Shown: piece by piece, positions 57,416-61,369 of the stretch
Numbering within the stretch: position 1 is the stretch's first letter
Layout: each line of letters begins with the position of its first letter
Assembly (NCBI GenBank): GCA_964610875.1
Contig: CAZSWP010000002.1
Location: forward strand, 32,001-96,000
DNA from: an uncultured archaeon
GTDB taxonomy: Archaea; Asgardarchaeota; Thorarchaeia; Thorarchaeales; Thorarchaeaceae
Direction: 5' to 3'
DNA: 64,000 nt
Notes under the pieces: model-generated
The model's database searches: none
Seen by the model: the letters and a program-made list of their open reading frames with translations, nothing else
Told to the model about the DNA's origin: nothing
Translations under genes and position numbers: made by a program

Positions 57416-58411
57416 ATGAGTGAGAATAGCCGACCAAAGAAAGATGCAGCTAAGACAAAATGGCGTGAATTCTTAGGGTCTACGACATTCGTAGATTCTA
57501 GAAATCTGGCGAAATATGTTGGTTGTGAACGACTTTTTTTGAAATTTGAAGGAGGCAATCCAACCGGAACTCAGAAGGATAGAATTGCTCTTGCCATAAT
57601 AGACCAAGCTAAGGCAGTTGGCGCCACTGCTGTGACCACAGCTACATGTGGTAATTTTGGTGCAGCTTTGGCATGGGCAGCAAGAATATACGAGATTCCT
57701 GCTCATATCTACATACCTGAAGGTTACCATGTACCAAAGGATAGAATGCGTCGGATAAAGGAAGCAGGAGCGATACTTCACTTTGAATCAGGACAATATG
57801 AAGACTTAGTGGTGTATTCAAGTGAAGCTGCACAAGAGAATGAATGGTTTAACGCAAATCCAGGTGTGAATGGCGTAAAAGAGATCTCATTGGAAGCTTA
57901 TAGCGAAATCGCTAACGAGATCTACAGAGATATTCGGAGAGCACCAAATTACATCTTTTGCCCAGTTGGAAATGGTACTACACTAGCAGGAATCCATCTA
58001 GGATTCAAACGACTAGCAGAAGCAGGCAAGATTCAAGAAGTACCGCGGATGGTTGCTACTAGTACTAGACGTGGTAACCCCATAGTAAAATCCTACAAAA
58101 TGAAGTCCTATGTGGTTGTAGACCTTCGCCGTGATGAGGTAAAGGAAACTAAGATCAATGAGCCTCTAACAAATTGGCATTCCTATGATGGACAAGAAGC
58201 TCTTGATGCAATCTATGAGTCAAATGGGTTTGCAGACTACGCTTCAGAAACAAAGATGATGGAATTTGCCAAACTTCTAAGACAAGAAGAAGGACTCTAT
58301 GTATTGCCAGCTGCAGCAAGTACATTGGCTGTGATGAATGATCTTGCTGATAGTAAGGTCACTGTCAAGGGTACATTCTGTGCAATACTAACAGGTAGAT
58401 ACTTCGAATAG
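57416..58411 (+). CDS. Threonine-synthase-like fold-type II PLP enzyme
   Basis: LKFEGGNPTGTQKDR, ATCGNFG, PVGNGTT. Confidence 0.8.
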   Translation: MSENSRPKKDAAKTKWREFLGSTTFVDSRNLAKYVGCERLFLKFEGGNPTGTQKDRIALAIIDQAKAVGATAVTTATCGNFGAALAWAARIYEIPAHIYIPEGYHVPKDRMRRIKEAGAILHFESGQYEDLVVYSSEAAQENEWFNANPGVNGVKEISLEAYSEIANEIYRDIRRAPNYIFCPVGNGTTLAGIHLGFKRLAEAGKIQEVPRMVATSTRRGNPIVKSYKMKSYVVVDLRRDEVKETKINEPLTNWHSYDGQEALDAIYESNGFADYASETKMMEFAKLLRQEEGLYVLPAAASTLAVMNDLADSKVTVKGTFCAILTGRYFE

Positions 58412-58431
58412 AGCTCAAAATGCATAAACTG

Positions 58432-58938
58432 TCATAATACCCGTACCATTCGCAAGTTTCCATCTTCCATTCGTTCCAGTACTTTGAAACCAAGTCTCTC
58501 GTAAAACCGCTTTAGTGGAATTCCACGTTCATTGACTTCTTCAGTGTCTAAGAGGATCTGCTTGTACCCTTTGGATTTAGCCCAGTTGACCAAAGACCAC
58601 ATGATTGTCTTTCCAATACCTTCTCCCGTCACCCGCACTGCAATCGTATCGAGATAGAATGCATCCTCTAAATCATAAGAAGTATATCCCAATACGACTG
58701 CAAAGGGAGAACCATCTACAAAGATGAAAAAGAATAAGAGACCTTCTTGCTCAGTTCTTCTCTCCAGCTCATCAGGAGTATATCTCAGCTCAGAGCGAAA
58801 TGCAGCTTGTTCAATATCACAAAACCATTGGTACGTTTCACGAAAACCTCCTGAATAGAACTCCATTGATATCTTACTGCAGGTATCTTCTTCGATTTTG
58901 TTACGAAGCGTACGCCATATGTGTTCTTGCGAAGTCAT
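58432..58938 (-). CDS. GNAT family acetyltransferase
   Basis: YLDTIAV..GEGIG, LKRFYERLGF. Confidence 0.8.
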   Translation of the reverse strand: MTSQEHIWRTLRNKIEEDTCSKISMEFYSGGFRETYQWFCDIEQAAFRSELRYTPDELERRTEQEGLLFFFIFVDGSPFAVVLGYTSYDLEDAFYLDTIAVRVTGEGIGKTIMWSLVNWAKSKGYKQILLDTEEVNERGIPLKRFYERLGFKVLERMEDGNLRMVRVL

Positions 58939-58956
58939 TTGATATGCTCCTACTCT

Positions 58957-59946
58957 CTATAACCCATAGCGACTTCTTGCAGAGTCAAGTAAACGATGTA
59001 TGAGTGTATTATATGTGTAACCACCTTGTATAGCCATATAGGGGTAAAAAGAGATATCCTTGTTTTCCAGGTCAAAATCCATTCCAGGTAGTGGATTTAT
59101 CTCCAGAAAGTAAAGATTTCCATCTTCGTCCATTCTGTAGTCGACTCTGGCAAAATCAGGAACCATGAGATGTTTACAGATATCAATTGTAATTCGTTCC
59201 AGTTCAGCTCGAATCACTTCCGATATCTTTGCAGGACAGATATAATGGTCCAGTTCCTCGTAAATTGTCTTTGCACGTTGACCAAAAACTCCACCCACTT
59301 CATGAGGTAGAGTTGAAAAATCAACCTCGAGAACGGGAAATACTTCGAAACCCCCATCAGTTTTGCCAAGCACGCCAACACTAAACTCACGTCCTTGGAT
59401 AAATTGCTCTAGAAGGATCCCTTGTTCGTATTCATCGAGCATTTGTTTGAGTTTCTCTGCAAGTTGTTCTTTGTTATGTACAACATTGTCTTCATTGATG
59501 CCTATGGAAGATCCTTCCTCATTTGGTTTCAGAATGAAGGGGTATTTCAAAGATATATCCAGAGCCTCTTCCAATGTTGTACAAATATGGAAGTCAGGAG
59601 TTGGAATTCCGTGATATGCTAGTATCTTCTTTGTCCACCCTTTATTAAGACAGACAGCAGTGGTCAGTACATTGGCACCAACATAGGGAACACCTAGCAT
59701 TTCAAGAACAGCAGGCACATGAGATTCCCGACTTTCTCCCCGTATTCCTTCAGAACGGTTGAAGACCAAATCAGGCCATACCTCTTTGATGTGCTCGACT
59801 ACTTTATCATCTGCTTCAATGAATACATACTCATTTCCTGATGACTCTATACCTTGTTTTATGAGTTCAATAGTATGAGGGGGGTCATATTCTACTTCAA
59901 ATTCTGACCCACTCTTTCGGGTATTCACAATTAGTGCAACGCGCAT
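58957..59946 (-). CDS. D-Ala-D-Ala-ligase-like ATP-grasp enzyme
   Basis: PDLVFNRSEG, RESHVPAVLEMLG, LKPNEEGSSIGI, EQFIQGREFSVG, ARVDYR, LEINPLPG; start ATG 59946. Confidence 0.85.
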   Translation of the reverse strand: MRVALIVNTRKSGSEFEVEYDPPHTIELIKQGIESSGNEYVFIEADDKVVEHIKEVWPDLVFNRSEGIRGESRESHVPAVLEMLGVPYVGANVLTTAVCLNKGWTKKILAYHGIPTPDFHICTTLEEALDISLKYPFILKPNEEGSSIGINEDNVVHNKEQLAEKLKQMLDEYEQGILLEQFIQGREFSVGVLGKTDGGFEVFPVLEVDFSTLPHEVGGVFGQRAKTIYEELDHYICPAKISEVIRAELERITIDICKHLMVPDFARVDYRMDEDGNLYFLEINPLPGMDFDLENKDISFYPYMAIQGGYTYNTLIHRLLDSARSRYGL

Positions 59947-60007
59947 TTCAATACCAACGGAAATCCATAACAAAATTTGCATAAAACTTTGATACTGTGT
60001 CCACATT

Positions 60008-61369
60008 TTACAATTCAAATGACACAATTTCTTCGCGATATATGGACAACACATCTTCTCGTAGGGATTCAGGCACACTGATTGGCTCATAGATTGAAAT
60101 AAACCGTTTCCAGAGTTCATCCTCTCGTGCTTTGGCTTCATCATAAAGATCAGACTTTTTGAATTCCTCGATTAATGATCCATGATTTCCCTTCTTTGCC
60201 GCGCAATATAAGCCAAATAACTGCTCATCATGTGCAGTCTCCGTATTAGCATATGTTAGTTCAGACCTTCCGCCAAATAAAGTGAAGAATTTTTGATGTC
60301 GTGATTCTAGCATGTTCTCCTTAAACCCAACATCTTTTGGATTCATACCACTTGCTGCACAGAGCAAATACATCTTTGCGCATACCGAACAATCATGACA
60401 CCATCTGTAGTCCCTACCTGATTCGGTTTCTGTAAAACAAGACATCTGATATTTTGCTATCTCTGGATATCTATGAACTAGTATTCGCTGCACCATCATA
60501 TCCATTAGAGGTTCAATCAAACTACCCGTTCTAACACTACCTCCAGAGAACAATCGTGTCATTTGATCAATATGTATAGTCCACTCATGTGACTGATCAA
60601 AGCAAGGATGAATTGTCCATTCTTTTTTTGCATCCATATAGGTTTCTGATGTTGTCTGCTCGTTCCCAAAAAGAATGTATCCACCATTATATGCATAGGC
60701 AAAAGGTATGAACTCTAAAGCATATTCAGTGGACTGGAGACCCCAACCGAACTCGGATTTTGGAAGTCCGAGATGAGAATAATCTCTGAGCTTTCCAGTA
60801 TCGTGATGTAGGATATGGACAGTCTTTCCGAACTCCTTCGCAAACCCTTCTGAAAGTAACCGTTTGTGTTTTTCTTCATAAGTCAAGGATTCTTCAATCA
60901 CGTAAACAACTTCTGGTTCAAGGCCGAGTTCTGCAGCAACAGCATATGTCAGAAGGCTGTCCTTACCAAAACTCATACCTATAATAGCTCTCTCAGGATT
61001 ATCCACAGGAGTTGATGAGGGAGTTGTCATAGATCCCTCATTGAAGGCATAAATCGTATTGTAAAAACGTCTAATAGCATCAGATGTATCAGTCTCATCC
61101 ACGTCGGTGCATGAAGGAATATCTTTTACAAAATTCTCATAGAAATAGGCTTCAAGTATTGGACGAGGTGTGTCGTATTTGATATAGTCATCTTCCAAAA
61201 CCAAGGGCAGATGCATAGTTGTTGCTAAAGCAAGATTATCACGAAGCGCAAGTTGTGTTTCAGAAGGGAGTCTATTCCATTCTTTGGTGGGATATTCAAT
61301 AGCATAGTCCTTTTTTCTGAATGTTACGACTATACCTGATGAGAAGTTTTTGCTTTTTATTTCAATCAT
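60008..61369 (-). CDS. MurL-like PP-loop ATP-dependent enzyme (peptide epimerase-like)
   Basis: SFGKDS PP-loop, FGNEQ, SC...RWCHDCSVC resemble the MurL motifs GGKDS, SNE, SCN, WCxxCxKC. Confidence 0.6.
   Translation of the reverse strand: MIEIKSKNFSSGIVVTFRKKDYAIEYPTKEWNRLPSETQLALRDNLALATTMHLPLVLEDDYIKYDTPRPILEAYFYENFVKDIPSCTDVDETDTSDAIRRFYNTIYAFNEGSMTTPSSTPVDNPERAIIGMSFGKDSLLTYAVAAELGLEPEVVYVIEESLTYEEKHKRLLSEGFAKEFGKTVHILHHDTGKLRDYSHLGLPKSEFGWGLQSTEYALEFIPFAYAYNGGYILFGNEQTTSETYMDAKKEWTIHPCFDQSHEWTIHIDQMTRLFSGGSVRTGSLIEPLMDMMVQRILVHRYPEIAKYQMSCFTETESGRDYRWCHDCSVCAKMYLLCAASGMNPKDVGFKENMLESRHQKFFTLFGGRSELTYANTETAHDEQLFGLYCAAKKGNHGSLIEEFKKSDLYDEAKAREDELWKRFISIYEPISVPESLREDVLSIYREEIVSFEL

Follow-up and report, generated by a model that had tools for sequence, protein, structure and literature searches.

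The 64,000-nt stretch analysed here (the window), from contig CAZSWP010000002.1 of an uncultured archaeon of the family Thorarchaeaceae, carries at 57416-61369 four adjacent genes for a MurL-like PP-loop ATP pyrophosphatase, a Ddl-type ATP-grasp ligase, a GNAT acetyltransferase and a pyridoxal-phosphate (PLP) enzyme resembling threonine synthase (ThrC), which form an accessory, mobile module and quite possibly, though just short of probably, a pathway assembling a small capped peptide-like metabolite without a ribosome or a nonribosomal peptide synthetase (NRPS). The features are collected in Table 1 in window numbering, with the gene positions taken from a list of open reading frames (ORFs). 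The layout agrees with a first-pass annotation of the same DNA, in which the MurL-like, ligase and GNAT genes were described as co-oriented, here on the minus strand, and facing the PLP gene on the plus strand. All four frames are intact, with the cofactor and catalytic motifs retained, and the intergenic gaps are of 61, 18 and 20 nt. The ligase ORF was listed as 58957-60144 (-), with a 137-nt overlap with the MurL-like gene; since the 50 orthologues compared are conserved from the Met at 59946 (MRVALIVNTR) onwards and are 329-334 aa long, the gene was shortened to begin there, 61 nt past the MurL-like stop. The AT-rich stretch that precedes the MurL-like gene likely contains a promoter belonging to the operon.

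Table 1. Features of the four-gene module and of its immediate flanks
Feature	Coordinates	Strand	Description
ThrC-like PLP enzyme (P0272)	57416-58411	+	331 aa; convergent with the other three
GNAT acetyltransferase (P0273)	58432-58938	-	168 aa; Acetyltransf_1 match
Ddl-family ATP-grasp ligase (P0274)	58957-59946	-	329 aa; start revised by conservation
MurL-like PP-loop ATP pyrophosphatase (P0001)	60008-61369	-	453 aa
AT-rich spacer	61370-61455	-	86 nt; upstream of the MurL-like gene; read directly; putative promoter
Protein without Pfam or NCBIfam match	61456-63912	-	818 aa; directly upstream of the MurL-like gene
TPR protein	55986-57287	+	433 aa; upstream of the PLP gene, same strand

The linkage of the four genes was followed through 80 loci from species-representative genomes and several more from assemblies, with their ORFs matched to the window proteins; the orthologue clade was delimited at a score of at least 440 bits, and the counts were made over the 48 loci with enough flank. 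All four genes stand together in 43 of these 48 loci, in Asgard archaea, Bathyarchaeia and Spirochaetia, and, taken singly, the ligase, the GNAT and the PLP enzyme are present beside 46, 44 and 47 of the MurL-like orthologues, respectively; some of the incomplete loci look like frameshifts or assembly breaks. The four-gene arrangement is far beyond chance, and the recurrence elsewhere, on which the first-pass reading hung, is thereby borne out. In Asgard archaea and Bathyarchaeia the PLP gene faces the other three, whereas in the Spirochaetia (about 50% identity) the order is co-directional, PLP enzyme>MurL-like>ATP-grasp>GNAT, with 4-nt overlaps, and the survival of the linkage through this rearrangement speaks strongly for a common function.

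The best homologues of the window proteins, at 60-69% identity, are found in Thor-, Hermod-, Hod- and Odinarchaeota and in Bathyarchaeia, and the MurL-like, ligase and PLP proteins are very highly conserved (57-80% identity across phyla). In a tree built with FastTree only, the Bathyarchaeia copies are nested within the Asgard diversity, with the spirochaete copies sister to all archaeal ones. The MurL-like gene occurs in 26 of the 201 sampled Asgard genomes and in 14 of 43 genomes of the host's family, with a patchy distribution within genera. The module is accessory and horizontally transferred. Two further copies carry labels outside these groups: one assigned to Actinomycetota (L041) is near-identical in sequence and context to the Bathyarchaeia loci and probably represents a binning error, and another labelled Rickettsiales (L050) groups with the Spirochaetia.

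The MurL-like protein carries an SFGKDS PP-loop and a WCHDCSVC motif, with the cysteines C311, C324, C327 and C330 invariant across 68 family representatives. No Pfam family matched it at E <= 0.01, QueC (PF06508) included, and phmmer against the PDB sequences gave only noise, while NCBIfam returned a weak match to MurL_Xanthomonadales (17.8 bits, E 9e-4) at collinear positions. The full-library search yielded 328 relatives, and 39 of the 68 full-length family representatives matched the MurL hidden Markov model, with a best E of 3e-12; no true MurL was found in five genomes carrying distant family members. True MurL genes (810-821 bits) and their close relatives were taken from a sample of 300 Gammaproteobacteria and aligned (A3) for profile comparison. 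By hhalign, the family alignment (A2) matched MurL at 98.8% with E 4e-17 over 343 columns, with query residues 73-446 lying on MurL 95-462, and matched the Asgard QueC alignment (A4) at 88% with E 3e-6 over 198 columns of the core only (residues 124-347), whereas the comparison of MurL with QueC was not significant (6%, E 0.0058, 38 columns). The three comparisons therefore place the family nearer to MurL, yet as a bridge between MurL and QueC. The MurL label of the first-pass annotation holds against these profiles, with the protein much closer in sequence to MurL than to QueC, and on sequence grounds it is to be regarded as a true remote MurL homologue.

The AlphaFold (AF2) model of the protein (pLDDT 87.5) would divide it into an N-terminal domain (1-124), a QueC-type core (approximately 125-343) and a C-terminal helical domain (344-453). 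The core (125-343) was superimposed by VIA-align on QueC (3bl5_A) with Z 14.4 and an rmsd of 2.8 A over 191 of the 195 QueC residues, and on Cap9 (9nto_B) with Z 13.9, compared to Z 8-11 for other PP-loop enzymes and 5.5 for asparagine synthetase; QatC, QueC and Cap9 took the top ranks in Foldseek. Fused forms of the protein (794 aa or more) were not found, which is weak evidence. The protein belongs to the MurL superfamily and combines a QueC-type adenylating core with extra domains at both ends; it is to be equated neither with MurL itself nor with QueC, and the labels "MurL-like" and "QueC-like" both hold, at different depths.

The ligase matches Dala_Dala_lig_C at 117 bits and falls under both Ddl cut-offs, with 157 vs 245.65 bits for TIGR01205 and 176 vs 243 bits for PRK01372, while its closest solved relatives are Ddl enzymes (E 4e-26). 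The catalytic motifs KPxxEGSS, AK, RVD and LEINPLPGM are kept, as seen in the alignment to solved Ddl, and are conserved in 50 orthologues. It is the sole strong Ddl-type gene in the genome. The GNAT is assigned by its Acetyltransf_1 match (E 3e-10) and has the acetyl-CoA loop RVTGEGIGK; its gene comes after that of the ligase in 44 of the 48 loci with enough flank.

The PLP enzyme scores 180 bits against PALP and passes the cut-off of PRK06381 (NF004996), a family named "threonine synthase", with 352 vs 266 bits; the threonine-synthase-like label of the first-pass annotation stands, yet not in the sense of a housekeeping ThrC. It lies under the cut-off of the thrC family TIGR00260 (83 vs 167 bits), which is passed by two other genes in the genome. 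The lysine motif for PLP, NPTGTQKDR, is retained, whereas STGNTSAS, common to three solved ThrC enzymes, reads TCGNFGAA, and the ThrC motif NSVNPxRxEGQKT reads NGVKEISLEAYSE, without a conserved Arg. These ThrC motifs bind the substrate phosphate, and because they are altered threonine synthase activity is not expected. A housekeeping threonine synthase is thus ruled out by the low thrC score, the altered motifs and the two other thrC-passing genes, and the enzyme is predicted from its sequence to be a ThrC-derived fold-type-II PLP enzyme. None of the 14 reference genomes has a PRK06381 member, so that the family name is to be taken as nominal; the PLP copy of the spirochaete module matches this family at 423 bits, and an atlas look-up of the window enzyme gave generic "threonine synthase family" clusters only.

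Across the wider family, a Ddl-like ATP-grasp ligase adjoins the MurL-like genes in archaea, spirochaetes, DPANN and metagenome-assembled genomes of Gammaproteobacteria, and true MurL genes adjoin Mur ligases (L102, L104, L105), as published (PMC8788868), so the pairing of an amide ligase with a MurL-type enzyme is recurrent. In Iainarchaeota and unclassified archaea (L056, L061), Ddl-like ligases occur together with radical SAM enzymes resembling lysine/glutamate 2,3-aminomutases, and the L061 cluster contains two ligases and two MurL-like genes, with the PP-loop and cysteine motifs kept in both tandem copies. Extra ATP-grasp genes (up to three across such clusters), an Orn/DAP decarboxylase and an aminomutase are found in L067, and the three clusters look like systems for the ATP-grasp-based assembly of beta- or diamino-acid peptides. 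In Nanoarchaeia and Woesearchaeota (L054, L055, L057) the MurL-like genes form tandem pairs with both motifs intact in each copy, followed in L054 and L057 by a DgcN-like (DUF1611) acetyltransferase, DapF, an MgtE-like protein and an Nramp transporter. In a second Bathyarchaeia clade (L062-L082; 33-35% identity), neighbours of the ligase, GNAT and PLP types are all missing. An amide ligase, a MurL-type enzyme and amino-acid tailoring form the recurrent theme, and the peptide-building role proposed in the first-pass annotation fits the repeated pairing of the family with Ddl-like ligases and amino-acid-tailoring enzymes; as a whole, that interpretation is partly supported. As to the second Bathyarchaeia clade itself, its genes are preceded by a protein of 167-221 aa without known family, and one Bathyarchaeia metagenome-assembled genome (record CAYNQS01) has both MurL-like types.

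Several neighbours are shared less widely. Four other Thorarchaeota loci (L016, L022, L024, L027) have a homologue of the 818-aa protein at this place, which the closest relatives of the window do not, and a TPR protein of 418-440 aa stands at the corresponding place in the majority of Thorarchaeota loci, frequently with a YhhN-family protein after it; this position of the TPR protein is not kept in Bathyarchaeia or Spirochaetia. In two loci of a single Thorarchaeota lineage (L012, L013), a 2,4-diaminopentanoate-dehydrogenase-like gene and a class III aminotransferase gene lie divergently beside the MurL-like gene, which hints at ornithine or diamino-acid metabolism nearby and is not conserved elsewhere.

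A pathway may be proposed for the module, with the order of the steps and the substrates being inferred. The ThrC-derived PLP enzyme would make or tailor an amino-acid building block, which the Ddl-type ligase would couple with a second amino acid via an acyl-phosphate; the MurL-like enzyme would then adenylate the free C-terminal alpha-carboxylate of the ligase product (ATP to AMP and pyrophosphate), and the free amine would be acetylated by the GNAT. This series of steps would yield an N-acetyl-X-(D)-Y dipeptide, protease-resistant and of reduced charge, which might act in sediment anaerobes as a compatible solute or as some other metabolite with a protective or signalling role. That the MurL-like enzyme would adenylate a carboxylate may be taken as secure by analogy, because PP-loop, QueC and MurL chemistry all do so, and the C-terminus of the ligase product is the likely target because of the analogy with MurD2/MurL and the constant pairing with the ligase. 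After adenylation, the residue is probably inverted from L to D; the other option is amidation, as in the synthesis of N-acetylglutaminylglutamine amide (NAGGN). Two observations favour epimerisation: the similarity to MurL is much closer and longer than that to QueC, and the cluster with two ligases and two MurL-like genes suits an inversion after each ligation better than a single end cap. The accessory, transferable nature of the module and the expected capping of its product make a solute role plausible.

Several points weigh against the proposal of a D-residue dipeptide. The core fold resembles QueC and Cap9, which turn the adenylate into an amide or a nitrile, not an epimer, and the N-terminal approximately 70 residues do not align with those of MurL, so the substrate certainly differs from that of MurL. 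The MurL catalytic base is not known (PMC8788868, PMC5808125), and there is therefore no residue test for epimerase activity. The Ddl-like ligase might itself use free D-amino acids, the genome having one gene of the Asp/Glu-racemase family. Neither a transporter nor a regulator consistently accompanies the module in the loci compared, and for this reason the role given to the product is a guess.

Amidation is an unlikely, still live alternative, owing to the QueC/Cap9 fold and the enzyme-class match with NAGGN synthesis: the MurL-like enzyme would cap and not invert, with ammonia attacking the adenylate to give an N-acetyl dipeptide amide (or nitrile), an analogue of NAGGN. In NAGGN synthesis Ngg combines a GNAT and an ATP-grasp enzyme and AsnO is a PP-loop amidotransferase, which match the enzyme classes here one for one (PMC8070244); both closest solved folds, QueC and Cap9, are amide-forming, the four Zn-site cysteines align with those of QueC, and asparagine-synthetase-like PP-loop enzymes also form peptide C-terminal nitriles (PMC13060819). 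An accessory, transferable module in sediment organisms would suit an osmolyte. However, the similarity to MurL is stronger and longer (343 columns) than that to QueC (198), the module has no glutaminase domain or partner, the homology to AsnO is nil beyond the PP-loop fold, as in the low Z of asparagine synthetase, and the L061 cluster is hard to reconcile with a single end cap. The PP-loop protein might also be a non-orthologous replacement of QueC in archaeosine synthesis, with its neighbours unrelated. Indeed, the 95%-complete genome yielded no canonical QueC, though it encodes arcTGT (279 bits) and a PTPS/QueD-like protein, and none of five other module-bearing genomes has a full QueC match. 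However, QueC is found in only 2 of the 43 genomes of the host's family, being absent from the other 41 regardless of the module, while the module and QueC coexist in two genomes of another Asgard family (G459, G501). The MurL-like gene moreover stands in an operon with the ligase, GNAT and PLP enzyme, and its product has no Pfam QueC match. Contradicted by this phyletic pattern, the QueC replacement is rejected as hardly credible.

An improbable reading is the salvage or detoxification of D-amino acids from sediment necromass, in which the GNAT would acetylate a D-amino acid, the MurL-like enzyme would invert the N-acyl amino acid from D to L at the expense of ATP and a deacylase would be encoded elsewhere. 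The route would be analogous to DgcN/DgcA for D-glutamate, with the ligase and the PLP enzyme handling related substrates. The hosts are sediment peptide degraders, which counts for it. The MurL-like pairs of Woesearchaeota and Nanoarchaeia adjoin a DgcN-like N-acetyltransferase (169 bits) and DapF, and one Spirochaetia locus has a gene of the M20 aminoacylase family at a distance of four genes upstream from the operon. However, the ligase, the most constant partner, has no obvious catabolic place, no deacylase is conserved with the module, and MurL works in the L-to-D direction only (PMC5808125). A candidate D-aminoacylase neighbour in Hermodarchaeota was rejected, as this Amidohydro_3 protein is FwdA and unrelated. 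Improbable to much the same degree is the modification of a protein or RNA terminus by the MurL-like and ATP-grasp enzymes, in the style of RimK, tubulin-tyrosine ligase or QatC/Cap9, without a free metabolite. The best Foldseek matches, QatC and Cap9, modify protein N-termini, and the high conservation of the three large proteins would suit a macromolecular target. However, neither a conserved small ORF nor a gene for a candidate target was found in or beside the module, the gaps of which are of 18-86 nt, the distribution is patchy and accessory, no PADLOC match was obtained, and the tightly linked PLP amino-acid enzyme points to small-molecule chemistry. Two related candidates were likewise discarded: a precursor of a ribosomally synthesised and post-translationally modified peptide, for which these gaps leave no space, and an anti-phage defence system, as none of the four proteins matched PADLOC.

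With the dipeptide pathway kept as the preferred reading, it is possible, if rather doubtful, that MurL-type epimerases and Ddl-type ligases constitute a widespread transferable route to small D-residue peptides in Asgard archaea, Bathyarchaeia, DPANN and Spirochaetia, yielding N-acetyl-L,D-dipeptides, possibly solutes, without free D-amino acids, a ribosome or an NRPS. To our knowledge, MurL alone has been characterised in its family, and the present comparison places it as an elaborated QueC-type adenylating enzyme with a large uncharacterised sister family that has different, constant partners and occurs in organisms without murein. If the epimerisation is true, Asgard archaea and Bathyarchaeia would have a route to D-amino-acid peptides and a new ribosome-independent logic, "ligate, then invert"; if the amidation is true, the module would be an archaeal counterpart of NAGGN-type osmolyte synthesis; and either way the product would be a new metabolite of abundant sediment archaea. 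Neither a MurL relative from archaea nor a MurL partnered with ATP-grasp enzymes is described in the literature searched. The four enzymes are small, soluble and easy to express and assay.

Among the known systems, the Ddl/Van ligases are the nearest to the module ligase by sequence, with the ATP-grasp catalytic residues (Lys, Arg-x-Asp, Glu-x-Asn and the EGSS loop) kept. The position of the AKY tyrosine of Ddl, which we take to sit in the omega-loop and to have a role in second-substrate specificity, is AKT here and variable among the orthologues. The module ligase differs further in its highly conserved N-terminal motif NTRxxSxSExEVEYDPP, in a conserved 8-residue insertion DFDxxxxD before the S-F motif, near the second-substrate serine, and in the lack of a murein context. 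The likeness to QueC consists in the fold of residues 125-343 and in the four aligned Zn-site cysteines, and the MurL-like chemistry likely starts with carboxylate adenylation, as in QueC. However, the MurL-like protein is twice the size of QueC, with added N- and C-terminal domains, its PP-loop reads SFGKDS and not SGGxDS, and its gene has neither a deazaguanine gene context nor a distribution complementary to that of QueC.

The likeness to NAGGN synthesis in Sinorhizobium and Pseudomonas, where a GNAT and an ATP-grasp ligase are likewise combined with a PP-loop enzyme directed at the C-terminal carboxylate of a dipeptide, is an analogy at the level of enzyme classes and not a homology. Ngg is a fused GNAT and cyanophycin-synthetase-like ATP-grasp enzyme, whereas the module has separate genes and a Ddl-type ligase; AsnO is of the asparagine-synthetase type with a glutaminase domain, whereas the PP-loop enzyme here is of the MurL/QueC type, free of a glutaminase, and accompanied by a PLP enzyme. 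MurL, which releases AMP (PMC5808125), is approached most closely: the lengths are similar (453 aa here and about 447 aa in MurL), the homology extends from residue ~73 to the C-terminus, the GKDS PP-loop, (G/S)NE, SLxxPL, SC and WCxxCxxC motifs follow in the same order, and each gene adjoins that of an ATP-dependent amide ligase. The score of the window protein, however, is far from the 700-bit cut-off of the MurL equivalog NF041275, its N-terminal ~70 residues are unrelated, and its partner is a Ddl-type ATP-grasp enzyme instead of the MurD2-type Mur ligase. The absence of mur ligases, noted in the first-pass annotation for the window, extends to the whole genome: no Mur ligase (Mur_ligase_M) was found in the 95%-complete assembly, and the host hence has no murein precursor. 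The GNAT and the PLP enzyme, absent from the MurD2/MurL loci, are the extra conserved partners of the archaeal and spirochaete module.

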